A stretch of 58,948 nucleotides of DNA, counting the filler, from Jimgerdemannia flammicorona (Eukaryota), in NCBI GenBank assembly GCA_003990765.1. It is 3 parts of 3 records of this genome, joined end to end, with 100 filler letters (N's around TTAATTAATTAA, not from the genome) between each part and the next. Parts side by side here need not be neighbours in the genome. Positions count along the whole stretch, not along the records: positions 39,374 to 58,948 come from RBNJ01001905.1; 2 more parts are not named here. One strand, given 5' to 3'. Shown piece after piece: positions 3,384-53,920 of this stretch (its first letter is position 1; each line of letters opens with the position of its first letter). Position numbers and translations under genes: made by a program. Below the pieces are notes generated by a model, which was given only the letters and a program-made list of their open reading frames with translations, ran no database searches and was not told where the DNA came from.

Positions 3384-6300
3384 ATGACAACCGCGGAACA
3401 AACTGCTCGAAGGCTCAGATTTCAAGGCGAAGGTTTCAGGCAAAGGGAACCCTTGACGGTGAGAATCAAGGGCATTCTTGCCGAATATCCGAAGGGATCC
3501 CAAATCCTCAGAGAAATACTGCAAAACGCAGACGATGCCGGGAGCACAGAACAGGTATACGTATATTTGGCTCTTCAAAGCACACGCTATGACATGCTCG
3601 CAACAAAGATTACGACGGGCCCATGCTGAGACAACATTTCTTTTCCATAGGTTTTTTTGCTGGACCATAATACCTATTCCACAACCGACCTCATCGATCC
3701 TACCTTGGCCGACTACCAAGGCCCATCCCTCCTAGCCAAGAGCAACAGCAAGTTCACCAAGAGGGACTTTAAATCTCTTCAGAACCTCGGCAACAGCCTG
3801 AAGCAAGAAGATCTCGACAAGACGGGCCGGTACGGCGTCGGGTTCAATGCCGTCTACCACATGACCGACGTGCCGATGATCCTGTCGGACGACCACTTTG
3901 TCATCCTCGACCCCCACGAACGCGTGAATTTCGGCGGACACTCGGGCGGCGAAAGTTATAATTTTGTGGCGGATAATTTCCAGGATGATTTCCCAACATC
4001 GCAGTTTGAGCCCTTCAAAGTTCTGGTCAAGGATTTCAAGCACCCGTTCGATGGGACAGTCTTCAAGTACCCTTTGCGAACCAAGAAGCACGCGGAATCA
4101 TCGGAGATATCAAAGGACCCGTGTCCGGTTGGAGACATTTTGGACATGTTCGACAGATTTCAAGACGAGGCAGCAGAGTCTTTATTGTTTTTGAAATACT
4201 TGGAGAAGATTTCGTTTTACGAACTGCTCAACGGCAAGAATGAACCGCAGCTGTTGTACGAGATTGAATTGTTGAATCGCGAGAAAGTCCGAGAACGACG
4301 GCAGCTGCTAGCTAGGAACGTGAAAAGCATCATGGCCAGCGTCGACAACGAATCTCTCCTTGCGAGTGCCGAAGAAACTCAATCGGTGGTCGAAGAAACT
4401 CGTCGATCCATATCATCGACGTATATCGCCAAAATTCGTTGCTTCTCCTACAAATCAGACGATGACAAAATATCTCGCTGGCTTATACAAAACTATCTAG
4501 GAGACGTGTCGAAGGCAGAACAACATTTCCTCGAAACATACGGCGTGCACCTCAAAGATGACAAATTCATTCCATGGGTTGGAGCCGCCGCGTGCTTGAG
4601 CGACGCTAATCAAGGCGGTGGAAGCCTGTTCTGTTTTCTACGTTTGCCTGTCAGTACGCCATTTAATGTCTACATCCACGGATTCTTCGCTATGTCAAGC
4701 AGTCGGCGCGAGCTCCCCATCCCGAGCCAGGATCAGTTGACTGACGATGCGCGGATGACCATTAAAGCTGAATGGAACCAGTACCTCTTCCAACACTGCA
4801 TCCCACAAGCTTGGGCTGATCTGCTGAAAGCGTTGACGGAATGCGACGATCCCGACGGCAACCTGATTATGCCGATTGATGATTACACGTTTTGGCCATT
4901 GGGGATTGATCGTAAAGACAGCGATCCCCACAGCAAAAATGTCGATAGATTGTGGGAGAGCATCTTGGACGACGTCATCGGCATCATCGCTAGCGACGAG
5001 ACCTCGGTGTTCCGAGGAATCACTTTTGGCAGCGACATTGGCCGTAGCTGGGTTTCCCTCGCAGACGGAGTTTTGGAAGATGAAGACTTCGACGATCATA
5101 CCTCTTTGACTACAGCACTAGCACGCAGCGGCCTACGTATGATACCAAACCTCCCGCAAGGTATACAGCATGTGCTAAAAAGCAAAAATATATTTCACAA
5201 ACGCGCTTCGCCAAATCTCGTCGGGGAGCATTTAAGAGGTACAGCAGATCGGTGGTCAACGATCCTCGGCGATGACGAAAAATTCATGTTGTTGAGGTAC
5301 ATGTTGAAAGATAGGGAGTATCAAACCTTACAGGGTTTGCCGTTGATCCTGCTCGCAGACGACAATAAGACGTATGCCAGTTTCAATGAGACAACACGAC
5401 CGCCAATTTTTATGGCTTCCGAGGACGAGCGCTTCTTGTTCGAGAAATGGGAGCCACGTCTCATGAGCCGCTCAATATCCCCGGCCTTTGAAACGCATGA
5501 TTTTGAGTCCATGTCGAGAGTCATCAATATCCGCCGCTGGTCGCTACAAACAGCAATCGATTGTTTGAACAGGGTATTTTCCACTGTCGAGAATAAGTCG
5601 GATGATGTGATCCCATGGCCTAACTTCACTGGGTATGGAATCGATCTGGACTGGCTTGGTCGTTTGTGGAAATGGATCGACCCCCAAACTAAGGACAACC
5701 TAGATCTGTTCGGCGAACTCTGGTTGATACCGACAAACCAAAAGTCGTTGTGCAAAGTACAATCTGCAAAGCCGATACTTTGGCACAATTCATCCAACGC
5801 CGTTCATCCACCAGCAGCCATTGTGCCTTTGCTCGAGAAACTGGGGTGCACGTTTGTCCTTGGTAGATTTCTTGTCCAAGAAAGCCTCTCTTCGGGATTA
5901 CGTGATGTCGTCGACGAATGTTCAAACGCCGAGGCTGTCCTGCAAGGGATCTCCACGGAAATTTCTGGCGCGCTGACCGAAGACGAAATTCGGCCATTGA
6001 GAGAGTATCTTGCTAAATATATCCGCCTTTTGCCCTCTCCCGGCCTCTCGTCGGCTTCGTTGAACTCATTGAAAAGGTTGCCCATCTTCCCCAAGCGCGA
6101 AAACGATGGCTTCCACAACACGCCAATCTCTTCATCAAGTGTCACTTGGCATGCGTTCGAATGCGCTAAAATCGGAGAGACCATTCTCTGCGCTCCCAAT
6201 ACCGGAATTATTGACGTTGGATCCCAAGATGTCAAGTATCTCGCCATCGACGTGGCACGCGTGAACTACCTTGAAATCGCAGAGTACCTCGGTCAACATG

Positions 6301-9300
6301 TACTCCCCTATTTAAAATCTCAATCCCTCAGCGTGGCGAATGTTTTGATTGACTGTATATTGGAGCATTTGCCGAGCCTTTTGGCAAGAGACGGAAACGG
6401 TGTCCTTCAACATCTTCGTGATCTTCCTTTCGTTACAGTCGGCACTATCTCCGGTGCTTCGAGTGGCAAGATACTTCAACCTGCTGAAACTATTGATAAG
6501 AATTCCGACTTGAAAGACTTCTTTCTATCGAGCGAAGAGGTGTTTCCCATCGGAAAATACGCCGCGACGGATGTGATGTCTCAACTTCACATGTTGGGCA
6601 TGAACAATGCGCTCAATTGTAAGATAGTCATCGATCGCGTTACATACTACGCTGATAACTGGTCTAAAAAAACGGAACTGAAACAAGCCATTTACAGTGC
6701 CTCAAAGGAATTTCTCCAAACGCTCGATCGATGCTATTCGAACGTGAAAGCGACAGCTACGGATTCAAACGACATTCAAGAGATGGAGAGAGTGTTATCA
6801 AGTAAGCAATGGATTCCAACGACTTTTGTAAATGAAGGAGCAAGAAGCCTGTCGACTGCCAACGGTTCTCGACATGAAGATGACAAGGATTTGGTCTCGA
6901 AAGTTATACCAATACTGGATTATTCTGTGAGGTCAGATCTTCGGCACGTGCTAGGATGGGATAAAGATCCACCCATAGACATCGTGATTAAGCAACTCTT
7001 GTCTTTGCTGAGACAATATTCTTTAACCGCAGCGCCCGAAATTCCGAGATGTCTGGAGAGCGTGTTCGAACACCTTGACAAAATTGCGAAGGACGACAAT
7101 ACAAATACAAATATCAATCATTTGAGGGCAGCCTTGCTAAACATGGAGTGGATTCCTGTCGACGGCAAGCTCTACAGGGTTTCTAAGGTGACGCTTTCAA
7201 CTCCATCGGGACACGATTTGAAACCGTACTTCATGACGGTTCCACAGTCGATAGGGAAATACCGAACCCTTTTCGAATCCTTTGGAGTTCCGAGTGTTCT
7301 CAGTACTCCCCAACTGATTGAGATAGTACAAGGCGTAAAAGACAACGTGAAAGAGACCAGGTTGACATCATCGGACTTCGACCTGGTGATGAATCTTATA
7401 ACAGAGATTACGAAAGATGGCTCGGATTGTATCAAAGCTCATGGCGATCTGTTCGCGCCGTCGGATGCCGACATTCTGACGGAAGTTTCTCTGCTCACAT
7501 TTGACGATATCAGCAAAATTCAACAATTGCCTTCCTCGTCTTCTGAGCACTTCCTATGGTGCCACAGCAAAGTATCACGCCATATCTGCGAAAACCTCGG
7601 GATACAATTGTTGAGCCAAAGATCGATGTATGGTGCTGACAACGAGACCGAGTCCTGGGAACAGGAAGAGTCGTTGACCACGCGGATAAGCAGCCTTCTC
7701 AGAGATTATCTTGACGATGCTCTATTCCGTGAATTTTTACAAAACGCTGATGATGCAAATGCAACGAAATTCTGTATTGTCTACGAACCAAACCCTCCTC
7801 CGTTTGAGGGCACTCGAACCCTTATATCGGCAAATATGGAGGCGTGGCAAGGTCCTGCACTGTGGCTTTACAACGACGGCGAATTCAGTGAAGGCGATTT
7901 TGAAGGATTACGACATGTTGGCATCGGCAATAAGAGAGAGGCTGATGGCGTTCGAATCGGCAAATTTGGTCTCGGATTTTTAGATTGCTACCACTACACA
8001 GGTAATTGTAACGATACATACTACAAACATGAACAATATGAAAAGAAAAAAAAAACCCCCCTAGCGGATAAGCATGAGTACTTATCGTTATTTATCCTCC
8101 AAACCGATTATTTCCAGATCTTCCATCGGTTGTAAGTGGGAACCACGCGATTTTCTTCGATCCTCATAAAGAGTACCTCCCACCCCCTGATGGCATCAAC
8201 ATGCCGGCAGGCCTTCGAACAAATTTCGTCAAAGGAAAATTTGAAGATCAGTTTTTGCCATACACTCGCCTGTTTGACTTCGACATGACCAAACCTTTCA
8301 AGGGGACACTGTTCCGGCTCCCGCTTCGAACCGAGGAGCTTGCTAGGTGTAGCAAACTAAGTAGCAAATTTTACCACAACAATGACATCAAGCAGCTGTT
8401 CAATGAGTTCCAAACTGAAGCCTCCCGTGGAGCCTTGTTATTCCTCAAGCATGTCGAGGAGATCGGAGTGTACGAGTTAGGGACCGACGGAAAGATGAGA
8501 CCGCTTTGGGAAGTAGCTGTGGATGGTCTGACGGATGATGTCAGACACCAACGGATGATGGTGGAGAACAACTATGAGTATACGACTAGCTTCCGTATGA
8601 ATCTTCGACTCTCTCTCAACGCAGGGCTGGTTCAACGCAATGAAACGGAGAAGTGGTTGGTCACCATGGGATTGTCCAAACCCACTCTTGATGCAGAGTT
8701 GCAGCGACTCGTGGATCTCAATCAACTTGTCGCTCATGTTGGCGTAGCTGGGATGCTCGAAACCTCATGTCAAGAGATGTCGAAGGGCCCGGGGAGCCTC
8801 TTTTCCTCCTTGCCTCTGCCAGTATCACTTACCGGAATCCCTGTTAATCTACACGGATACTTTGCCCTGACAAGCGATCGCCGAGCTCTCCTTTCACAAG
8901 CCAACGGCGCAACCGATGATCCTGGAAGAATTGACGGGCGAGGCCAGAGTTACCATCTTAGCAGATGGAACCAACTCCTTCTCAGTCAACAATTGCCAAA
9001 AATTCACCTACAATTCCTCCAAGAGCTTATCAAAGAGAATGAACTGGTGGGATCGACCAAAGGTTCCTTGATGGACGAGAGTACTGTGGTTAAGAAGTAT
9101 TTCAACTATTGGCTGACTAATGACGAAGGAAAAGTGTTCCATGATTATGGTAAACACTTGTGCGGTGTCGCAATGGAAAGCGGAGACGTTTTTTACACCC
9201 AGAATGGAGGCGGACAGTGGATCAGCTATCAGGAGGCTGTATTCGAGGATGACAAATTATTGTCCAAGCAAGATGCCAAGCAGCAGGGTGTTTTAAAAGT

Positions 9301-12124
9301 CATCAGCAACCTTTTGATCGAACGTGGCATCAACATTGTACAACTCCCTCGCATGTTACTCAAAAGTCTCCTTAAATGTGAAGATAAAACCGTGCTTCAG
9401 CAAGTCACCCCCAAGCTCGTCCGCGACAGCATCCGGTATGGCAAGTCATTTGTAGAGAAGATGGACGAGAAAGATTTCAGCGATTTCTTCGAATATCTCC
9501 TGGAAGACAAAGCCTTCGCAGACCTTAGAGGCTGCGCCATTTTACCGCTCATGAACAAGACGATGGGCACACTCAGAGGGGGCCGAGCTCAATTCTATAT
9601 TGCGAAAAGCGAAGAAATTGCACTTCTTCCCAATCACTCATCAAATTTAGTAGATACTAAACAAATCTCGGACGCCACCAGGGAAGCACTCAAGACCGTG
9701 GAGGCAGCCAATACCCTCAATGTGAAACAACTGGACTGCGATGATGTCATTGAACTGGTCTCAGGCATGTTGCGTCATGGAGATTACTTGGATTACGATC
9801 GTAATGGGACTAACATAAACGACAAGTGGCTTTGTGAACTATGGAAATATCTGGATGCAGCGAAAAACGTCAACATCGCGCCTTTCGAAAACATCCCAAT
9901 CCTGCCGACCATCAGCCCGAGGGGAATGCTAGTTTCCTTAAACAGAAGATTGCCTCGGCTCTACGAAGACAGCCAGAAATCCGATATCAACTCAATTTTG
10001 ACGAAAATGGGCACGGAACTCATCGAAAAGTCGTACTCCAAGTTCGAGATATTGTCCGATTTTGTGCTGAAGTTCTCCGCGCCGAATGTACTACAATGCA
10101 TACAATTGGCTAGGAAGAAAAAGAATTGTTCCGTCGAGGATTTACTATCAGAGCTGAACTCTGATGAGCGAAACACCCTGAGGACCTTCTTTCAAAGAAA
10201 TAATTACGACCTATTTGGTCTACCAAACACGCTTTCCTCGGAATTGCTGGAGACCCTCCGTCAGCTGCCCATCTTTCAGGCTCACTCATCCTCCTTGACC
10301 ATTGGCTTCAAACCCGCGACATCCTGCCATCTTCTCCCGCATAACCTCCCCGTATTTTCAGTGTCGCCCGGGATGGCCATTCTTTGTAAAGATTCCATCG
10401 ACAAAAATTTCGCGTCCAATATCAAGGTGCATTACCTGTCGGTCAAAGAACACTTGTTGTGCAACGTTCTCCCGTTGCTCCAGAACCCCCTGCCGGCCAC
10501 CAAGGTCGATGATTACGAGGCGTTTCTTTGTGTGGTGCTCCGTAATGCCGATTGGGAGCTCTTCAATGTGCTTTCGGAGCATCGGATCATCCCGAACAAC
10601 GAATCGGCCGACTACAGGCTTTTCAGAGCCTCGGAGCTTTACGATGACGCAAACACGATGTTTGCTGCCGTGTTTGCAGGGGCGGGAAAGTTTGTCGCAA
10701 GGAACATCAGGAGGTACCTCCCAAATCTCGAGGAAATGGGTTTTAAGACTGAGACCAACGTGTTGACGTTTATCGAGTGCGTTGACGAGGTTGTTCGTCT
10801 CTCAAAACTCGGGCGGGATCGGCCCCAGAATTACCTGGCCCGAGCCAAACAAGTGGCCTCTAATCTCAACGAGATCTTAAACTTTAAGCTAGATGAAGAC
10901 AAGTTGTCCCACCTTCTCGAACAAGAGTTCATTCCCTTCAACAACGTAACATTTACGGAGCTACCCCCTTTCGCGCACCAATTCCTTCCCTCCGTCGGCC
11001 CGCTCACTTCCCTTTCCAACTTCTGTCTGCAAGAATATCGCAAGGTTGTCTGGACCCAACGCCCTATCTTCGACAATATATGCAACGGCTTTATGCAAAC
11101 TGTTCAAGGATTCCGCGACCCACCTGTTAATATTGCCCTCGACCACCTCCACTGCCTCGCTCTCACGGTTTCCCCACAATGGCTCGAGAACCAGGACGCG
11201 TTTCACCGTTTACTCATCGCCACGTACCAGTTTCTCCTTGATCACTCCGACGATCCAAAATTTAAGCCCAAAATACGCGATCGCCTTTCGAGCACAACTC
11301 CCTTGTTCTTGAATGGCGACGACCCGACGGACCCCCAAAACTGGAAGCCCGCCAGGTACCTTGTCATTGACTTAGATTCCGATATCAACCCGCAGCTGCT
11401 CAAGGTTCACGAATTCCTTGTGCCCTACAAGAAGCTCTTAAGGCTGGGCGGCGCAAAAGACTACAAACAACTTCCGAAGGTAAACATCCCGAGGCCAAAC
11501 GGTGATCTGATCTATACCCTGCCGGTCCTCCGCAAGTTCGCCGATTTCCACCGTCGCGGCGACGCCGTCGCTATGATGTACAAGGACGTGGTTTTCCTCG
11601 TGGATGGCCGCCGGTTTTCAACTTCACGGATCTTCCTGGCCATGGTCAGCGACCATTTCAATAGGATGTTCCTCCAAGAACACAACAGCATGACGGAGCG
11701 TCTCCCCATTGAGATCGGTGTTGAGGGTGTGTCGCCCACCGCGTTTGGCATCATGCTAGATTACCTTCACACCGGCGAGCTCACCATCACGCTCGAGGGC
11801 GTTAACGTAGACAATGAATTCGCAGAGAACGACCTCCTGAAAGTGTATCTTGATCTGCTCCAGGCTGCGGATACATACGCGCTTGACCAGCTCAAGGAAT
11901 TGGTCGAGACGCGAATCGTCAATGATAAGATGATCAGTATCAACACTGTGCTGGACATTGAGCAGCATGCGGATATGTATCGCGCTTACTGCCTGCGTGA
12001 CTATTGCTGGTCATTCAAGCAGGATAATCAGAATTTGATGGTACTGGCGCATGGGCCGGAGGTAATCATTTCGGACGACGACGGCGAGGAGGAGGAGGAG
12101 GAGGGGGAGGAGGAGATCTTTTAG
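3384..12124 (+). CDS. Sacsin-like protein (two Hsp90-like sacsin repeat regions) with C-terminal BTB/POZ domain, ~2842 aa, 3 exons
   Basis: Exons 3384-3554, 3651-8001 and 8118-12124 join in frame through GT..AG introns. Repeat 1: [42 protein letters not shown]. Repeat 2: [77 protein letters not shown]...[12 protein letters not shown]...LLQAADTY. Confidence 0.93.
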
Positions 12125-19588: not shown

Positions 19589-19688
19589 NNNNNNNNNNNN
19601 NNNNNNNNNNNNNNNNNNNNNNNNNNNNNNNNTTAATTAATTAANNNNNNNNNNNNNNNNNNNNNNNNNNNNNNNNNNNNNNNNNNNN
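19589..19688. other. Assembly gap with artificial six-frame-stop linker
   Basis: N run with TTAATTAATTAA in the middle; identical structure at 39274..39373. Confidence 0.98.
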
Positions 19689-39273: not shown

Positions 39274-39373
39274 NNNNNNNNNNNNNNNNNNNNNNNNNNN
39301 NNNNNNNNNNNNNNNNNTTAATTAATTAANNNNNNNNNNNNNNNNNNNNNNNNNNNNNNNNNNNNNNNNNNNN
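39274..39373. other. Assembly gap with artificial linker
   Basis: N run with TTAATTAATTAA. Confidence 0.98.
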
Positions 39374-43442: not shown

Positions 43443-46400
43443 CTATAGTTCCTTCCTTTGCTGGGGGGTGAGTGTTTTCATATAGTCCTGGAGGACTTCA
43501 TGTATATTCTTCAGAACTTCTTCTTTTTCCCAGGTAGCATTGTAGGTGGGGTAACTCTTCCACTTGATCAGGAAAAACCACTTGACTGTTTTGGAATATT
43601 TGCAGACCTTGTGGTCAAGTACTTCCTCAATTTCAAATTCCTCATGATCATTGATCCAAATTGGGGGTGGTGGTGGAACTGTATGCTTAGGGAATGGGTT
43701 CTCATAGTAGTCTACCAATTGGCTAATATGGAATACTGGGTGTACTCAGACATTGTGGGGAAGTTGTAACTTATAGTTGACTTCACTGATTTTTTCCATG
43801 ATCTTGTATGGTCCAATTCTTCTAATACAGAGTTTCTTAGCTGATTATTATATCAGAGTGTCTGGATGGAGGTGGTCTGTTCTAAGCATGACCATGTCAC
43901 TAATATCATAGGAGGCTTCTCTTCATTTTAGGTTCACATACTTGGTCTAGTAGTCTTGTGCTTCTATGAGAGCATCTCTTGCCATTTGAGTAAGATCAGA
44001 AATGGTCTCAGCCAGATCTTGGGCTGCTGGGACTGCTGATTTTGCAGTAGTACTCGGGGTCCTTGAGTGTTGACTGTGGTTCAGGAAGAATGGAGTCTTC
44101 TTTGTAGAGGTTTGCTGACTGTTGTTATAGGCAAACTCAGCATGGGCTAGGTACTTGTCCCAATCATTTTGCTTATAACAGTAGAAGATACTAAGCATCT
44201 GTTTGAGAGTCCTGTTGGTTTGCTCAGTTTGACTATTAGTCTGAGGGTGGTAGGTAGTAGAGAACTTCAGCTTAGTTCTATGGAGAGAGAAGAATGCCTT
44301 CCAGAAGTTGCTTGTGAACTTGGCATCTCAGTCAGATACAATAGTGCTAGGTATGCCATATAGCCTGAATACTTGATTGAGGAAAATCTCAGCAATCTCT
44401 GGTACTGTAGCAGTAGTCTTGGTGGGTGCAAAATGGGCTTATTTACTTAGGCAGTCTACAAATACTATAATGGCATCCCATCCTGCCTTGGTCTTGGAGA
44501 GTTGGACAATGAAGTCTATTGCAATTTGGTCTCAGTTGTGACTTGGAATAGACAAGGGTTGCAGGAGTTCTGCTAGTAGCATGTTACCACTTTTGAACCT
44601 TTAGTATATCTCGCATGAGGCCACAAAGTCTTTGATATCCTTGGTCATCTTTGGCCAGTAGAACTCTCTTGAGAGGAGGTTGTAGGTCTTTTTAAAACCA
44701 AAGTGTCCTACTACAGAAGTATCATGGAGTTCCTGCATGATCTTGAGTCGCAGAGTATCATTATTGGGTACAACCACTCTGTCATGGTCCCTGTAGATAA
44801 GTCCATCATAGTAAGTGAATCTCTTGGCCATTTGCCTTATAGGTTCTGGAACCTCAGCCTCTGGGTCTTGGCAGAATTGAAGAAATTTCATCAGAGGGCT
44901 GTCTTACTGGTAGCCTTTCTTGATCATCTGGATGAGGTCTCCAATTACTTCAACCATGAAGACAAGTTCATCTTCCATGTACCTGGAGAAACCATCAGCC
45001 ACATGGTTGGTTTTGCCTGGGATATACTTGATTTCCATATCAAAGTTGACAATGATTTCCATCCAGTGGGCTTATTTGTGGGTCAGCATGGGCTGTGTGT
45101 AAATATACTGCAATGCATGGTGATCAGTATAGGCCATGAATGGTTGTTCTAAGAGGAAATAGTGCTATTCCTGGAGTGCAGTAATAATAGCCAGGAGTTC
45201 CTTCTTATGAGTAGTATACCAGGTCTCAGCTGGCTTGAGCTTTTGGGAAAGATAGGCCACTGGGTGGTCTTTTTGGCTGAGTATTGCTCCAATAGCAATA
45301 TCAGAGACATCTGTAGTCAGAGTGAATGGCCTGGTAGGGTCAGGTGCAATTAGCACTGGGGCCTCAGTAAGGAGTCTCTTGAGATGGTCCATAGCCTGGG
45401 TGCATTCTGGGGTTCATTCAGCTTTGATGTTCACTCCTTTGTGGACCAGGCTGGTCAGTAGAGCTATAATGGTAGAGTATCCTTAGATAAACCTTCAGTA
45501 ATAACTGGCAATACTCAGAAAGTGCTGGAGTAACTTGAGGGTAGTAGGAATAGGAATATCCTTGAGGGCTGATACCTTTTGGTGGTCCACATTGATACCT
45601 TCAGCAGAGATGATATATCCTAGGTACTCAATCTGGTCTTGATAGAACTTACACTTACTCATCTTGGCATAGAGCTGGTGTTCTCACAGAAGAGTCAGCA
45701 CTTGTCTGAGGTGGGTGTAGTATAGCTCTACTGTCTCACTGTAGATTAGTATATCATCAATATATACAAGGATACAGATATTGAGGAGTGGTCCAAAGAT
45801 GTCATTCATTAGATACTAGAAAGTTGCTGGTACATTGGTCAATCCAAAAGGCATAACTCAGAACTGGTAGTGTCCAAACTGTGTTTAGAAAGCTGTCTTC
45901 TCAATGTCCTTCTCATAAATGAGAATCTGGTAGTAGCCATTTTGTAAATCCAGTAGGGAAAAGGTCTTGGCCTTGAAGATTTGGTATAGCAACTCGTCAA
46001 TCCTAGGCAAGGCATACTAGTTCTTGATAGTAATCTTGTTGAGGGCTCTGTAGTCAATATATATTTGCAGAAAGCCATCCTTCTTCTTGACAAATAGAAT
46101 GGGGGCTCCAAATGGAGAGTAGCTGGGTTCAATATATCCTTGGGCCAGTAGTTTGGTCAACTCATCCTTGAGGGTCTTGAGCTCAGGTTGGACCAGTTGG
46201 TAGATATTCTTGTATGAGGGTTCAGATTCTGGAATAAGATCAATTCCATGTTGGATTTGGTACTTGGGTGGAAGTCCTTGGGGGTCTTGGAATATATCTT
46301 GGAATTCTTCAAACAATTCTTGAGCTTCTGTTAGAATTGGGCTACTTGTAGTTTCAGTGACTTCTTGTACTATACAGATGAAGTAGGTATTTTCCATTTT

Positions 46401-47309
46401 TTGAGAGAGTCTCTTCATTTGAATGGTAGAGATGATTTTGATTCCTTAGTGGTTGGTACCTTCCTGGGGTGTCAGGATGATCTTTCTGCCTTCATGGGTC
46501 AGGTTAACCTCATTGGTTCTCCAGTTGATGTCAGGGTTGTGCTGGGTCAACCAGGCTTTTCCTAGGATAATATCTTGTCCTGGGAGGTCTATAATGCTGA
46601 AGTCCAACTTCTCATTATATTTGCCAATCTTGAGCAAGAGATCTTCACAGATCTTGGTCAATGGTGTAGTCTTTCCATCACCAAAGATAACACTTCTTTT
46701 CTCAGTAGTTGGTCTGCTTTGGGCTCTAATCTTCTTGGTGGTCTTGGTGCTGATATAGTTTCCAGTAGCACTACTATCAAGCAAGACATTGATATTCTGT
46801 CTGTGGACTTGACCTGTGAACTTGATGCAACTGTCCTCCTTCTTGATAGTGTTGAGCTTTTTATCCTCATTATTGTTGTCCCAATTGCTGTCAGTCTCCT
46901 CAAAGTCAGTTTCTCCCCATCCTTTACAAGGAGGGTTGTCTTGTTTGGGTTCCTCAGTCTGTTGGGCTTGGTTTCTTTCAGTGTTGATTTTGAAAACCTT
47001 GAAGAGGCATGCATGGTATTCACTTACATATTCCATAAAATATATTTGAATAGAATGAGGGCATTGTCCACATAGTACATAACCATCTGCAATTCTCTTA
47101 TACCAGTTTTCATCATCTTCCTTCATGGTAGTGACCTTTTGACTAAGAGGTTTGTTGGTTGATCCAAACTCTTTCTTGCCATGGTCTGGCTGGGAAAGTT
47201 CAGGGACTTCTTCAATGGTGAAATCTTGACAGATTTCTTCAATAATTGCTTGAGCAATCCTTTGGACTGTTTTGACTTCAAATAATGTGTCTCCAAAGTT
47301 TCGTAAGAT
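43443..47309 (-). pseudogene. Chromovirus pol: dUTPase C-half, aspartic protease, RT, RNase H, integrase, chromodomain
   Basis: RIAQ...HGKKEFGST in frame with [34 protein letters not shown] (~45754-45771); TDVSDIAIGAILSQ; ELHD..VGHFG; WDKYLAHAEFAYNN; EFEIEEVLDH..FLIKWKSYP..NATWE. Confidence 0.92.
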
Positions 47310-48065
47310 GAGGAGGAAGAAGGCCCAGTGGGAGCCAAGGGAGCAAACCCAGAGCCAGTGTCAAAGCAAACGGAAGACATGTGGAAGAGCATGTATAAGG
47401 GGGACGAACAAAGAACATAACTGAAAATGCATCAGCCATTTATTGCCACATAAAAACGCGGTCCTTATACATATACAAAATACGACATCCTAAAAGGGAG
47501 GATGCACCACAACTCGGGGCGAACCGAATTAGGAACCACATGACTGCCGGAGATAAGCGGAGATAAAGGGGGAGCCAATCCCAGTTGCAGGATAAAAATC
47601 ACAAACAAACACAAACAAAACAAATCCAAATCGAGATTAAAAAACATCCTTGCCCCCTCCGGGGTCTTGCGCTCACTCCAGGGTCTCGGCCTTACTCCGC
47701 TCCCCTCCGCTGCCTTCGGCCCCTCGCTTTGCTTGGGCTCGCTACAGCTCGCTCCATTTCGGCCTCACCTCTCGCTCGCGCTCACCCCTCCGGGGTCTGC
47801 GGATGTTTTTTAATCTCGATTTAGATTTGTTTTGTTTGTGTTTATTTGTGATTTATATCCTGCAACTGAGATTGGCTCCCCCTTTATCTCCACTTATCTC
47901 CAGCGGTCATGTAGTTCCTAATTCGGTTCGCCCTGAGTTGTGGCGCATCCTCCCTTTTGGGACGTCATATTTTGTATATAAGGACCGCGTTTTTACATGG
48001 CAATAAACGGCTGATGTATTTTCGGTTACATTCTTTGTTCATTCCCCTTATACACGCTCTTCCAC

Positions 48066-49280
48066 ATATCTTCCGTTCGCTTTGACACTGGCTCTGGGTT
48101 TGCTCTCTTGGCTCCTGCTGGGCCTTCTTCCTCCTCTGCTGTACCACCTGCCCTTGGGGCCTCCGTCCTCATCAACAAGCTCATGGGTGAGGTTCTTCCT
48201 CCTCCTCCCCCTCCCCCTGCCTTTACCCCCGCCACTGTCTCGTTCAAGGCCTACATCTCGTCCGCCATCCTCTCCCTCCCTGTGGACCTTTGTCCTTCTG
48301 GTCGTCCGCTCCTCTCCCAGTTCCGGTCGGTTCTTGCCCTCTCTGCCAAGGAGGCTCATCTCCGCCATGACGTTGACGTCATTGCTCCACCCACCGTCTG
48401 CTACTCTGTTCTCCCCGAGGCCTGCCGCCAAGCCCTCTCTGAAGAGGTTCGTGCTGCCACTGCCACCGCCAAGCTTGCCACCACTGACGCTGCCGCCACT
48501 TCTGCCACTGCCGCTTCTGCCTCCTTCCACTGTACCTGTGCTGCTTTCATGGCCTTCACCTCCTCCCGCCTTTCGGATGCCGCCCCCTTCTGTGGTTTTG
48601 ACATCCGCGATGTTCCTTCCATCGCCACTGACATCAATGCTATGCATCGCTTCCTCCTTGCCAGCACCTCTTTTGTTGCTCGTCTGCACGAGCAGGAGTC
48701 GTTACGTGCTGCCGCTGCTGCTCGCGCTACTGCCACTGCTCCCCTGCCTGCCTCCCCCGAGGTTTCAGTTTCCGAGGCCATTCGCGCCGAGGCTCGCGCT
48801 ACTGCTTGTGCTGAGGTTCGTTCCTTCACCGCCGCTGCCGCCAAGGCCCCCTCCCCCGCCAAGACCCCCACCAAGCCCAACCAGGCTTTGTCGGCCTCTT
48901 CCCGGTCCCCCTCCCCCACCAAGGCTTCCTCCTCTGCTCCCCCTGCCCCCAAGCATGGCTGCCAACTTGGTTCTCACCCCGTTGGGGCCTGGCCTTGTGC
49001 TGTCTGCTCCGGTTGCCTCCACCATGCCTATTGGCACCCGGCCAAGTCCGTCTGCCCCCATGGTGGTATTCCTCGCGCTGCTGCCCCTTCGGCTGCTCGC
49101 TTGCCTTCGGCCTCCTCTGCCGGTTCCTCCTCCGCCTCCTCCACCCGTGCCCCTGAATGCAAGGGCTGCACGAAAGCCTGTGGCCGCAAGGTCTGGTACT
49201 CTGACGGGGTGTGCTCCCATTCGTCGGGTTCGCCGCCTTCAAAAAAAGTCAGAGGGAAGGGGAAGGCCTCCCGCTCTTAA
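48066..49280 (+). CDS. PLE ORF1, Ala/Ser/Pro-rich with two Cys/His knuckle-like motifs (~404 aa)
   Basis: Start codon reads ATA at 48066 here but ATG in the other two repeat copies (MSSV.FDTGSGFAPL). CAVCSGCLHHAYWHPAKSVC and CKGCTKACGRKVWYSDGVCSH; basic tail. TATATAAG at ~47975. Confidence 0.7.
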   Translation: MSSVRFDTGSGFALLAPAGPSSSSAVPPALGASVLINKLMGEVLPPPPPPPAFTPATVSFKAYISSAILSLPVDLCPSGRPLLSQFRSVLALSAKEAHLRHDVDVIAPPTVCYSVLPEACRQALSEEVRAATATAKLATTDAAATSATAASASFHCTCAAFMAFTSSRLSDAAPFCGFDIRDVPSIATDINAMHRFLLASTSFVARLHEQESLRAAAAARATATAPLPASPEVSVSEAIRAEARATACAEVRSFTAAAAKAPSPAKTPTKPNQALSASSRSPSPTKASSSAPPAPKHGCQLGSHPVGAWPCAVCSGCLHHAYWHPAKSVCPHGGIPRAAAPSAARLPSASSAGSSSASSTRAPECKGCTKACGRKVWYSDGVCSHSSGSPPSKKVRGKGKASRS

Positions 49281-49366
49281 ACTTCCCCCCGGCGTAGTTC
49301 TCCCCCGGTGTCCCTGTCCCTTCTCGGATTCCGTCGTCGCTTCTGGTGCGGCCTGAGTGGTTCCTC

Positions 49367-51295
49367 ATGTTGTCCCCCCTTTGCCTTTCCCAGTTGCTTG
49401 TTCCGAACTTTCGGGTTTATTCTTCTCTTGGAGCTCTCTTATCTCCTTCCTTCTCTTTGGCTGACTGCCCCCTTTCTCCCCTTCAAGTCTTTGCCTTATC
49501 CTTGGGTCCTCGCTTCGTTTTCCCTGCAACTCCCTCACAATTCTTCTTCACTGATCCAGCTCATCTAACACGTTTTCGTCATGCTCTTGACCTTGCCATT
49601 TTCTTTCAAGATCGTGGTAAGATGCCCTCTCGCTATTTTGTTCCTAGCGATTGGGTCCCCCCTTCCAATGTCTCTTCACACTGTGTATTCCTCAACATGG
49701 CTTGCTCATTGTCCATTCCCGGATGCGCTCGCTCTTGCTTGGTTTCGGACCGTGCTGTGCATACCGCACTTAAATCGGTCAAGCAATTGTCTATGCATTT
49801 GCTCACAGTCACTGATAAGAATCAGGGTTTTGCACTTATTTCTAAGTCGCTCTACCTTGATGGCCTTTCTGCCCTCCTTCGAGCCATGGCTTACGAGCCT
49901 AGTGCTCTTGAATTAGATGAGGTTCTCACTCTTTTTCAGGTTTCTCTGGCTCATGCTAGATCACTTTCAGATTCTCCGTTCGTGAACCCCATTTTTAACT
50001 TCTTCCAGGACTCTTTGTCCTCCCCGGATATTTCTCTTCCAGTTTTCTATGCTCTTCCTAAAGTTCACAAGCCTCTTTTGGCTTGGCGTCCTATTACGGC
50101 TGCTTATAGCTCTCCTACCACCGAGATTTCGAAATGGTTATCCTGCTTCTTTCTCTCCTGGATGGCTCTCTTACAACACTGTCTTGGGCCTGAGTATACT
50201 ATTCTTCATGATACTCAGGAGCTCACCCTTCTCTGCTCCACCATTGTGCCTGTTCACCGTTTTTCCCATTTGGCCTCTGGTGATTTTTCTTCCTTCTATA
50301 CTGCTATTCGTTTTGATGAGATTGATGATTGCCTTCGCTTCTTGGGTTCCTTGGTTTTTCCCTTGGATTCTCCAGTTTTGCTGGCTTCCATTGTTGAGCT
50401 TACGCTCCTCGTCTGCGGCTCTAATTATTTTGAGTCGGCCCTTGGCTCTTTTCACCAGACTTCTAGTATTGCCATGGGTGCGAATTGTGCCCCCACCCTT
50501 GCCAACCTCGTTGGCTTGGCCCATGAATTGCATGCATTACGTGATACTACTTCACCTCTTTCCATTGCGTTCCGGGCTGGGGATATCTTCTTTCGCCGAT
50601 ATATTGATGACTTTATTGTCTTCGCTGTTGCTGGCATTGATATCTCTAGTGTGTTCCTGGGTGTCTACCCTCTCCATCATTCTATTACTTGGGTGTGTGG
50701 TACAACTAGTATTCCCTTTTTGGACCTTTCCATTTCTCTTTCTCCCTTCCAAACTGTTGTTTATTCCCGCTTTCCCCATTCCCAACAGTTCCCTGACTTC
50801 TTGTCCAATCATCCTCATCACACTCTTCTTGAATGTGTTCATGGTGAGGCTCGTCGTCTTGTACTATGCTGCTCCCGTCGTTCTGATTGGGTGTCTGCTG
50901 TTCGGGTTCTTGGCAACTTCGTAGTCCATCGTCGTGCCTACCCAATTTCTATCGTTCGTGATCTGCTTGCTTCTGTTGAATGGTCTGTTGTTTGCTCTTC
51001 CCTTCTCTCTCCTCTTTATCCCCCCTCCCTTCCCTCCCTCCCCCCTTACTCTCTCCATACCCCCTCTTCTTTCTCACCCCCGATTCTCATTGTACCATTT
51101 GATCATGCTCGCTGGGTTGCTCAATGCCCTGATACCATCCTGCGCTCTTCTCTTTCACGCCATGGACTTTCATCTCTTTCCCAACGCCCTCTGATTGCTC
51201 ATTCACGTCTTCCTTCTGTTTCTTCTTCAATCCATCGCTCTCATTTTGCGTTTTCGTCACCTTCTGGTGCCTCCGGCTCTGCCGGAGAGGATTAA
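49367..51295 (+). CDS. Penelope-like reverse transcriptase, open frame, no GIY-YIG domain
   Basis: LSPLQVFALSLGPRFV, TDKNQGFALISK (DKG-like motif), FYALPKVHKPLLAWRPI, DFSSFYTAI, QTSSIAMGANCAPTLANL, RRYIDD, IPFLDL, SNHPHH and RPLIAHSR, then stop. Confidence 0.9.
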   Translation: MLSPLCLSQLLVPNFRVYSSLGALLSPSFSLADCPLSPLQVFALSLGPRFVFPATPSQFFFTDPAHLTRFRHALDLAIFFQDRGKMPSRYFVPSDWVPPSNVSSHCVFLNMACSLSIPGCARSCLVSDRAVHTALKSVKQLSMHLLTVTDKNQGFALISKSLYLDGLSALLRAMAYEPSALELDEVLTLFQVSLAHARSLSDSPFVNPIFNFFQDSLSSPDISLPVFYALPKVHKPLLAWRPITAAYSSPTTEISKWLSCFFLSWMALLQHCLGPEYTILHDTQELTLLCSTIVPVHRFSHLASGDFSSFYTAIRFDEIDDCLRFLGSLVFPLDSPVLLASIVELTLLVCGSNYFESALGSFHQTSSIAMGANCAPTLANLVGLAHELHALRDTTSPLSIAFRAGDIFFRRYIDDFIVFAVAGIDISSVFLGVYPLHHSITWVCGTTSIPFLDLSISLSPFQTVVYSRFPHSQQFPDFLSNHPHHTLLECVHGEARRLVLCCSRRSDWVSAVRVLGNFVVHRRAYPISIVRDLLASVEWSVVCSSLLSPLYPPSLPSLPPYSLHTPSSFSPPILIVPFDHARWVAQCPDTILRSSLSRHGLSSLSQRPLIAHSRLPSVSSSIHRSHFAFSSPSGASGSAGED

Positions 51296-51790
51296 AAAAC
51301 ATCCTTGCCCCCTCCGGGGTCTCGCGCTCGCTCCGGGGTCTCGGCCTTACTCCGCTCCCCTCCGCTGCCTTCGGCCCCTCGCTTTGCTCGGGCTCGCTGT
51401 GGCTCGCTCTGTTTCGGCCTCACCCCTCGCTTGCGCTCACCCCTCTGGGGTCTGCGGATGTTTTTTAATCTCGATTTGGATTTGTTTTGTTTGTGTTTGT
51501 TTGTGATTTTTATCCTGCAACTGGGATTGGCTCCCCCTTTATCTCCGCTTATCTCTGGTGGTCATGTGGTTCCTAATTCGGTTCGCCCCAAGTTGTGGCA
51601 TGTCCTCCCTTTTGGGATGTCATATTTTGTATATAAGGACTGCGTTTTTACGTGGCAATAAATGGCTGATGCATTTTCGGTTATGTTCTTTATTCGTCCC
51701 CCTTATACACGCTCTTCCACATGTCTTCCATTTGCTTTGACACTGGCTCTGGGTTTGCTCCCTTGGCTCCCGCTGGGCCTTCTTCCTCCC

Positions 51791-53834
51791 CTTCACTCAG
51801 CAAGGCAGATGTATGTACCTTTGGGGGCTTGCATTGCAATCTCTATTCATACTGTAGCATTGGTACATACTTAGTGGAATAGTGAGGTCTTGACTGCTGT
51901 AGAGGTCATATCCAGTATTGGTTGGGTGGACCTTAGTGGGGATGGTAGCCTTATACTATATCTTCTGTACTTTGATGACATTCTTGGGGTTCTTCTTTCT
52001 TGGACCTTCTCCAATAACAGTAATGTTCTGATTACTGGGTTTGTCTGTTCTGTTCTTCTTCTCAGGGCATCTGAATGAGATATGTCCTGTCTTCTTGCAG
52101 ATGAAGCACAATCCCTTTTCACAGAGCTACTTCTTTTCATCCTCAATGGGAGGTCTGGGTCCTCTGGGATTTTGCTGATTCCTTTGATCATTCCATTGAT
52201 CATACATATCTTTGGTCATTTCTTTGATCATTTCTCCTGGTAGGATTTCTCCTATCTTGGTTATTCTTTTTGTATTCTTGATTTCATAGAGCTTGTGTAG
52301 TAAGGATTTTGCAGACTCTTCTTTGTACTTGGGCAAAGCACCATAAGTAGTGGGGGCATCCTTGGGGAAGACCTTGTTCCTTGATCTTCTGGGTGAGCCA
52401 GTCTGGTAGGGCTGCAAAGAGATGGTTGGCTCTGGTACCATTGATGGCCAAATTTTTTTCCTAGTAGATAAGTCCAACAGTTTTGAGATAGATATCCATT
52501 CTGGTAGCAAAGGTCTCTAGATCTTCTTTGCCATTCTTGTGGAACTTTATCTGGAACAGTTTGTTCCAAGTTTCTTGTATATAGGCCACATTTCAGAATT
52601 TGGTCAGTAGTAAGGCCTTGAGTCCTGGGCCTGCTTCATGGTCATCCCAACCTGGTCTATTATTGGCAGGTACTTGTCTATTGACTTGAGGGCAGGCTTC
52701 TCAAGTTACTGAGTGTTGTTCCAAGGTTTATCAGAATTCAGCTGCTGTTCCTATGAAGAATGTGGCTACTGTTTCCACTTGTGCTACTGATGTGGCAAAC
52801 AGCTATTAGAGGGTACTGTTCTGGTTGTTGGTGAGCATTCCTATAGATACTCTGTTGTCATTCCATTGGTTTGCTCAGTAGCCTATGTCAACTGTATCGA
52901 TGAAGTTTTTGATGTCACTGTTTTTTCCACTGAATGTTGGGATTCACATGGTCTTGGTTGGCTTGTTCTGTTCTGCAATTTGTCCTACTATCTCTGCTAG
53001 TGCTGCTAGCTGGGTAGTCAGTACTGCAATATTGACATCTACCATTGTATTTACTATTGGTGGTGGACCTGTTGGGGTAGATTCTTCTGAAGATTGTTCT
53101 GCTTGATGGGGTTGTGGTGCTGTATGATTTGGAGTTACTTGATTCCCAGATATCAGGTCAAAGAGTCCTGTGAGAGAGAGTAAACCAAACCTCTGTATAG
53201 GTAGCTGAGTTGGTTCTGGGGTCTGTTCTTCTTGACCTGTAGTTCCTTGGTAAATTCTTAGGCCTGCTGTTCCTCATTGGCTATCATCAGACTGGTAACC
53301 TGTAGAGTCTTCATCTGACTCCCTTCCCTGATGAGATAGTACATCCTTGTACTGACTAGGTCCTTCAAAGAGGATATCAGTCTCTGGCTGAGTAGATGGG
53401 CCTGCTCCTTGTTCAGCAGTAGGGGATGGATGGCCTGCTTGCTCATTCTCATATCTGGTTATAGCAGAGATATAGTATACAACTAGCCTGTAGTAGAGGG
53501 AGGTCTTGGTTGGGGTATAATTATATCTGTCAGAGGCAATCTACTTGGCAGCTGCTTCTCTTACAGCAGGGGGTGTGATATATTCTAGAAAATCCTGGGT
53601 GGCTGCAGCAGTAGATTCTGGAGTCCTAGTGGTTCTAATGTGTCCTTGGAGGAGTTCATAGAACTTACAGCAGCTGACAATATTCCTAAGTCCTGGGTGG
53701 TATGTTCTAAAAGCCTGGTATAGATCATTATAAGTCTGGTCAATTACAAGCTGGTGGGTTCTTGGGTCTGTGGTTTCCTGGTACCACCTGGTCCTAATGG
53801 CAAGGGCTTCTCTGGCTCTGGTTTGAGGATCCAC
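51791..53834 (-). pseudogene. Chromovirus gag region and dUTPase N-half (51791..~51985)
   Basis: Between PBS and protease. ATIPTKVHPTNTGYDLYSSQDLTIP and IAMQAPKGTYICLAE* (from RLAERS) abut the PLE; gag is broken into short ORFs. Confidence 0.75.
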
Positions 53835-53920
53835 AGTTGATTCTGGGGGTTACTCCTGTCCAAGGTTGGTCTTGTTCCAACTTTAGGAGTATGTTCTTTG
53901 GTATCTTCTTGACTGGTAAT

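Follow-up and report, generated by a model that had tools for sequence, protein, structure and literature searches.

We describe here a Penelope-like element (PLE) family in the genome of the fungus Jimgerdemannia flammicorona (assembly GCA_003990765.1), represented by one copy in a stretch of 58,948 nucleotides, called the window throughout, which consists of three parts joined by N-runs at positions 19589-19688 and 39274-39373; the copy lies wholly inside the third part (RBNJ01001905.1; G000:C1905). With a probability that we put at about 65%, this is an endonuclease-less, Coprina-like PLE whose spread relies on reverse transcription primed by the target at the two ends of double-strand breaks that already exist. 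The junctions of its copies display a fixed end base, a loose match of the target to the five element bases past it, no regular target-site duplication (TSD), a variable loss of target sequence, and a joining point of the two halves that varies from copy to copy within a hairpin block (B).

The window copy (47310-51791; 4.48 kb) has the order A'-B-A-ORF1-RT-B-A, in which a first open reading frame (ORF1) precedes that of the reverse transcriptase (RT) and A' is an inverted copy of block A (Table 1). The initial annotation, made from the sequence of the window alone, had seen both outer ends stop at one sequence in opposite orientation, about 24 codons into ORF1, with inverted termini of ~340 bp. 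This is borne out: 47310-47649 and 51456-51791 are about 94% paired, and the common stop lies 71 nt past the ORF1 start at 48066. Block A measures ~336 bp, with its third copy at 47801-48136, and ends 71 nt into ORF1, while 47635-48136 recurs as a direct repeat at 51290-51791. The 3' copy of B is predicted to fold at -82 kcal/mol (z -3.9); around the start site the RNA folds no better than shuffles (z -0.49), so we claim no stem there. TTAGGG and CCCTAA are both absent from the element, in line with the first impression that it lacks telomeric repeats. For a hammerhead there was neither an Rfam match nor, in 40 copies and on both strands, a canonical core, which leaves room for variant cores.

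Searches of the genome with the element's own sequences returned 814, 704 and 871 first-look candidates. Among 24 candidates scored there were 14 full-length rows, and 125 scored RT matches, 85-100% identical, are dispersed through the genome; no divergent sister family that could serve a selection test was found, the 125 and 107 best RT matches being one family. When 60 regions were fetched by RT position, 50 of 57 ORF1 starts followed an inverted junction, five lay in direct tandems and two in other settings. It is hence barely conceivable that the layout arose once, by a rearrangement in the window copy, or was produced there by misassembly: with 35,354 contigs the assembly is in many pieces, and palindromes are hard for short-read assembly, but besides the recurrent inverted junction there are 53 complete insertions, each with its own flanks, and the arms within one copy, like the three A copies of a single insertion, differ by about 7%, for which reason we do not regard the layout as an assembly collapse. 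The 40 aligned copies depart by 3.5-10.5% from the column majority, chiefly through CpG transitions, which we read as a past burst of the family that is now decaying. At some complex loci (L155, L120, L128, L156), several partial terminal repeats have been added successively at the fixed site, and two copies (L116, L157) precisely lack the 3' B, as if the RT had skipped the hairpin.

The RT has a weak match to RVT_1 (E = 0.0079, below the curated cut-off) and 2944 relatives at E <= 0.001; its relatives are of PLE type and include endonuclease-bearing PLE-type proteins. The DKN motif and the RT motifs are conserved across the 40 copies, and 231 aa lie between YIDD and the stop. The three best matches of its predicted fold (predicted local distance difference test, pLDDT, 85) are telomerases; a profile search against solved structures matched many RTs, including telomerase reverse transcriptase, and a single-sequence search gave 0 matches. 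The earlier reading of a PLE RT without a GIY-YIG endonuclease survived a dedicated search: a profile made out of the endonuclease domains of 19 PLEs, which found 21 relatives as a positive control, returned nothing above inclusion in the six frames of 217 sequences. Among the 150 nearest relatives, 20 have an endonuclease and 111 are DKN-type, none of these 111 with an endonuclease; 36 of the top 40 are DKN proteins without one. In a quick tree of 72 rows, with no named Coprina or Athena reference and sampling the 71 of 151 relatives that have both anchor motifs, the query falls on a long branch in an 8-row DKN set (support 95) and outside a 10-row set with DKG or an endonuclease (support 97). 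Names looked up for 20 relatives yielded just one fungus (Racocetra) and one amoeba. By sequence, then, the RT is of the telomerase-like, DKN, endonuclease-less, Coprina-like type; we call the element Coprina-like and do not file it as Coprina because its telomere and hammerhead features fail.

The window copy interrupts the dUTPase of a Ty3/gypsy long terminal repeat (LTR) retrotransposon spanning approximately 43900-53900 of the window (- strand), in which the dUTPase lies between a gag zinc knuckle and the protease. This retrotransposon has about 790 first-look candidates genome-wide, and paralogous copies of the target served as empty sites, here as for the other insertions. In 19 of 19 empty copies, 76 bp are present between the junctions that are missing from the window copy, and nothing is duplicated; depending on shared bases the loss is 74-77 bp. 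The insertion had at first been described as lacking a TSD and costing the dUTPase 25-30 codons; the former is confirmed, and the latter comes to about 25, the low end of that range. Across the family, the best direct repeat is 0-5 bp in 52 of the 53 complete insertions, similar to 600 mismatched control pairs. Fifteen insertions could be paired with an empty site, after 3 of 18 flank pairs (L113, L148, L161) had been dropped for matches that were short of the junctions or in tandem repeats. The target losses in these pairs are about -1, 0, 3, 3, 5, 9, 15, 16, 21, 24, 65, 77, 140 and 1041 bp, the remaining pair showing an apparent overlap of ~250 bp. One host gene in the window finds its nearest named relative in Jimgerdemannia, at 90% identity, followed by Mucorales, so the host is a fungus of Mucoromycota type. 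The host telomere repeat forms TTAGGG arrays at contig ends, and none of 169 outer ends lies within 300 bp of such an array, which allows for telomeric copies elsewhere in the genome. The 169 ends, which also underlie the tail, base-frequency and match-resumption counts below, include two later seen to be internal sites with indels.

The ends carry a priming signature. First, the terminus is reached by every A copy (261/261), and the ends are therefore not trimmed. Second, no 30-40-nt tail occurs at 95 internal-type sites, and at the 169 ends the element never continues for more than 8 nt. Third, after CCTCC two bases are kept at 91% and 94% of ends and the next four at 66, 47, 50 and 53%; past the first mismatch the match resumes in 48/94 ends at +4 and 57/94 at +5, against a background of 0.20 and 0.31. 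Fourth, at the 45 ends with an empty homologue, the terminal two bases are element-derived (the empty site agrees with the filled one at 13 and 14 of the 45) and the bases beyond them target-derived (33-40 of 45). The empty targets in turn match element positions +2 to +6 in 91 of 225 comparisons, with 54 expected (p = 4e-8), evenly between left (44/110) and right ends (47/115). On the simplest reading, either end of each insertion would go back to a target 3' end that paired loosely with the RNA immediately past a fixed start. Since the target pairs with five bases beyond the start, this start probably lies within the RNA. The initial annotation had the RT extend both ends of a resected break from the same RNA 3' end: the same RNA position is upheld by the fixed base, the variable loss, the loose pairing and the want of regular TSDs, while the 3' end probably gives way to an internal site. 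The filled-versus-empty comparison and the survey of A'-B-A recurrence that it had proposed thus yield variable deletions, matching at +2 to +6 and 50 of 57 inverted junctions, with no endonuclease in the family and its DKN-type relatives, no regular TSDs and an inversion that is neither unique to the window copy nor misassembled.

From these junctions we infer a template, a priming alignment, two complementary DNA (cDNA) lengths and an annealing step in B. The RNA would come from a tandem (or circular) B-A-ORF1-RT unit, in which five alignment bases of its own come directly after the start site. A broken and possibly trimmed 3' end would pair loosely with these five bases and be extended from the fixed site, in the manner of telomerase primer alignment. 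The cDNA would then stop at the first B, giving a short product of ~0.35-0.5 kb, or go on to a later B and comprise one or more units. With one cDNA on each end, the pair would be joined by annealing at the self-complementary B, the rest being filled in by host repair. A short and a long cDNA would give the layout of the window copy, two long ones a head-to-head dimer, and two short ones a solo A'-B-A; an aborted cDNA end could undergo renewed priming.

All three predicted products were found. Of 75 distinct inversion junctions, 54 unite a short arm with a full unit and 16 two full units head to head; 3 unite two short arms, of which one is a clean solo and two are complex, and contig ends cut the remaining 2. 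The short-plus-long class has 44 forward, 7 reversed and 3 mosaic B spacers, and the internal mosaics, dimers counted, are reversed-then-forward in 5 of 5. This polarity fits inward-growing cDNAs that anneal in B, and it fits fold-back too. The dimers seen whole have different outer flanks, because of which a simple hairpin duplication is disfavoured. Of 11 ends that adjoin sequence of the family itself, 10 lie at a 5' truncation whose copy has the same orientation (7 loci), which is what renewed priming of aborted cDNA ends would produce. Private variants at 72 non-deamination sites can be common to the three A copies of one insertion. The left and middle A share more of them than the left and right A (23 vs 6; 13 vs 4 copies, p = 0.025); the short arm may have been copied from the site in the 5' pseudo-LTR, or later conversion may be responsible.

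The excess of variants shared by the left and middle A is also what fold-back copying predicts, and it belongs to an account in which a free linear DNA with inverted ends, formed by a fold-back or panhandle at B in a DIRS-like manner, is captured at breaks by end-joining. The strong hairpin of B suits this account, deletions and microhomologies of 0-3 bp are typical of end-joining, and self-priming has been proposed for the palindromic junctions of endonuclease-bearing Penelopes (PMC3846280). We nevertheless consider it improbable, as trimming never reaches into the element, target sequence takes over from element sequence at one base with mismatches beyond it following the target, and fold-back by itself would not halt at the terminal base; the re-primed aborted copies lie in a single orientation, and neither ORF has a match to a tyrosine recombinase or integrase.

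Breaks primed on both ends could also be made by a nuclease, either a GIY-YIG enzyme that another PLE family provides in trans or one that goes unrecognised in the Cys/His-rich end of ORF1, which would make the family partly non-autonomous or the bearer of a new nuclease. The layout is indeed the one published for endonuclease-bearing PLEs (PMC3846280), the high copy number requires many breaks, the fold of ORF1 (pLDDT 44) is not recognised, and one insertion has a TSD-like repeat. The genome also contains another PLE family, which is divergent and has a long N-terminal extension and a DKG motif (L216, G000:C24122:600-2376; also G000:C5076 and C34014), and its C-terminus lies beyond the contig end; its best matches, on the other hand, are relatives without an endonuclease. 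Searching with a PLE protein that bears an endonuclease produced 52 matches (of 470 candidates), and no match extended past query residue 644, short of the endonuclease of the query. The 34 GIY-YIG matches in the genome, on 24 contigs, are in short frames (<=382 aa); a comparison by eye showed no overlap between these contigs and the listed ones with PLE RT matches. Given also that tails, longer continuations and TSDs are absent, and that the two ends are not tied to a single cut, we regard a nuclease as unlikely, albeit less so than capture of linear DNA. As an observation in its own right, five contigs (G000:C509, C6559, C1998, C17552, C24471) each have several short GIY-YIG frames, perhaps of mitochondrial intron endonucleases.

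Several points weigh against break-primed insertion as we propose it. The origin of the breaks is unobserved, and a nuclease in trans followed by resection would give similar junctions; the unseen C-terminus of the DKG family belongs here as well. Just 15 of the 53 insertions are comparable with an empty site on both flanks, several of these comparisons use one or few paralogues of 70-85% identity, and the losses of 24, 3 (L125), 140 and 1041 bp are weak. In one insertion of the 53 (L042) there is a TSD-like repeat of 11 bp. Of the two shifted controls for the pairing, one likewise exceeds expectation (68/225; the other, 45). The shared private variants of the A copies fit one RNA for both ends, yet also the copying of a preformed DNA unit. 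Every copy is decayed, and present-day activity is hence not demonstrated. We would give even odds to the stronger version of break-primed insertion, namely an autonomous, nuclease-free element whose telomerase-like RT aligns any free 3' end on five RNA bases, extends both ends of a break and reseals it via the hairpin.

Table 1. Positions of the element's parts and of the interrupted target gene in the window
Feature	Position	Strand	Remarks
Target dUTPase of a decayed Ty3/gypsy LTR retrotransposon, C-terminal part	47157..47309	-	Pfam model 79-128
A', inverted arm, putative short left cDNA	47310..47649	-	Outer limit is the fixed terminal base; left end common to most full copies
Overlap of A' and B			Innermost 15 bp of A' are the stem of B
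B, 181-nt imperfect hairpin with perfect 15-bp stem	47635..47815	+	Inversion centre, probable cDNA meeting point
A, middle copy	47801..48136	+	With B, the 5' pseudo-LTR; contains the first ~24 codons of ORF1
Putative primer-alignment region, five bases directly past the fixed end	48137..48141	+	Would pair loosely with target 3' ends
ORF1, 404 aa, Ala/Pro/Ser-rich, no known family	48066..49280	+	Start codon decayed in window copy
Slippery heptamer A_AAA_AAA and hairpin, in ORF1/RT overlap	49241..49287	+	Putative frameshift signal
RT ORF, 665 aa between stops here and 696 aa in several copies	49298..51295	+	DKN, RT motifs with YIDD, thumb; no endonuclease
B, 3' copy	51290..51470	+	Begins at RT stop codon
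A, 3' copy	51456..51791	+	Its end is the fixed terminal base
Target dUTPase, N-terminal part	51792..51955	-	Pfam model 3-44; the dUTPase has lost 74-77 bp between its parts

The ORF1 start is ATG in 33 of 40 copies and ATA in the window copy. Its product has predicted helices and two C-terminal Cys/His clusters, with the majority pattern CX2CX4HX4H followed by the second cluster; two cysteines of the knuckle-like stretch are Arg in most copies, by CpG decay. ORF1 belongs to no Pfam family, found no homologue among 8000 candidates scored (best Atlas score 0.83), and its low-confidence model (pLDDT 44) no fold match. The initial annotation had assigned a separate zinc-knuckle ORF1: judged by its motif pattern, ORF1 is not a canonical zinc knuckle, and it is probably an RNA-binding partner. 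It may not be separate from the RT either: the RT lies in the -1 frame relative to ORF1, and 39 of 40 copies keep the heptamer A_AAA_AAA, behind which, at a distance of 6 nt, comes a hairpin of -18.4 kcal/mol (a value without shuffle control) and possibly a pseudoknot. The RT may thus be made by -1 frameshifting and joined to ORF1; in-frame ATGs at 49367 and 49622 would permit its separate translation. Long second frames overlap ORF1 and the RT on the same strand in many copies (window 48007-49356 and 49986-50924, +; 450 and up to 541 codons), probably as a consequence of the A-poor strand.

L1 elements can insert at existing breaks independently of their endonuclease, with target deletion and no TSD, and twin priming, in which two primers are used, leads to inversion. 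There, this is a side route of an endonuclease-bearing element and the second primer acts at variable internal sites; in the Jimgerdemannia family, it would be the rule and tied to one fixed site. The family differs from DIRS-type retroelements in that neither ORF has a Pfam match to a tyrosine recombinase or integrase or to an LTR-type RT/RNase H, and that its RT relatives are PLE-type.

Among PLEs, it resembles Coprina-1_Alen as described in PMC13159263: both have no endonuclease, a DKN-type RT with thumb, ~4.5 kb, terminal direct repeats and, upstream of the RT ORF, an ORF1 in which there are coil and disordered regions. Coprina-1_Alen, however, sits at chromosome ends only, between telomeric repeats and in a single orientation, whereas the Jimgerdemannia family is dispersed, has no telomeric repeats at its ends (0/169) and bears an inverted arm. 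Athena of bdelloids likewise lacks an endonuclease, primes on exposed 3' ends and forms chains of copies on truncated ends, and its ORF1 may be set off by a frameshift with a pseudoknot, to which the heptamer and hairpin here may correspond; it attaches to telomeres via reverse-complement telomeric repeats and hammerheads (PMC8557442), neither of which we found in the Jimgerdemannia family.

The layout itself is already known from endonuclease-bearing Penelopes: Pen2a_Av has two direct pseudo-LTRs and an adjacent inverted one with a 15 bp overlap, and Penelope/Poseidon, Neptune, Nematis and Naiad share pseudo-LTRs with the first ORF codons, a junction palindrome and tandems (PMC3846280). A start of reverse transcription inside the ORF has been shown for PAc (PMC11167929). 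The family departs from the endonuclease-bearing PLEs in having no endonuclease, TSD or tail, and in combining target loss with a match of target to RNA at both ends. In PMC3846280, endonuclease-deficient PLEs of fungi and protists are said not to have the inverted pseudo-LTR organisation, and endonuclease-deficient PLEs are noted as perhaps priming at double-strand breaks; PMC8557442 calls endonuclease cleavage a very likely determinant of structures with direct and inverted pseudo-LTRs. What is new is that the inverted pseudo-LTR layout arises without an endonuclease, in a fungus and away from telomeres. It is a variant and not a new class, given dispersed precedents: PLE-X (Chara, Selaginella) and the shrimp MjPLE01 likewise have no identified endonuclease and lie away from telomeres, the Chara PLE-X families being genome-wide with their insertion mechanism left open (PMC8557442). 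PLE-X belongs to the Chlamys clade, with a CxC motif and hammerheads (PMC8557442); the DKN motif and the absence of a detected hammerhead argue against such membership for the Jimgerdemannia RT, as far as motifs can tell. We found no published description of the family in a literature search that was thin on subscription papers, and Repbase or the supplement of PMC8557442 may hold one.

The origin of the direct-plus-inverted repeats of PLEs is a standing question, and here, in a fungus, the complete architecture occurs at many internal sites in the absence of an endonuclease. With no nuclease to blur the record, its junctions would report priming at base level: a fixed start, a short loose alignment, both ends of the target, and joining by a hairpin. 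They make testable the long-standing proposal that endonuclease-deficient PLEs prime at internal breaks, and offer a small two-ORF system for the study of telomerase-like primer alignment. Were the element nuclease-free, the inverted pseudo-LTR architecture of PLEs would need no endonuclease, and the family would be a living model of a break-primed ancestor of PLEs and telomerase, one that reached hundreds of internal sites. For the Jimgerdemannia genome, it is a source of deletions and 8-kb palindromes.

Two further observations concern other sequences. At L018:2753-3494 and L014:42-794, another repeat comprises the end of an ORF with a Cys/His motif, which we take to resemble that of non-LTR elements, and a 3' end with 2-3 CCTAAC units; it is possibly a telomere-repeat-tailed long interspersed nuclear element at internal sites. 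The CCTAAC run at the truncation in L018 was considered as telomerase capping and rejected, as the same run ends the second copy of the neighbouring repeat (L014). Finally, a very long host gene at window 3651-12124 (+) codes for several Sacsin domains and a C-terminal BTB domain.

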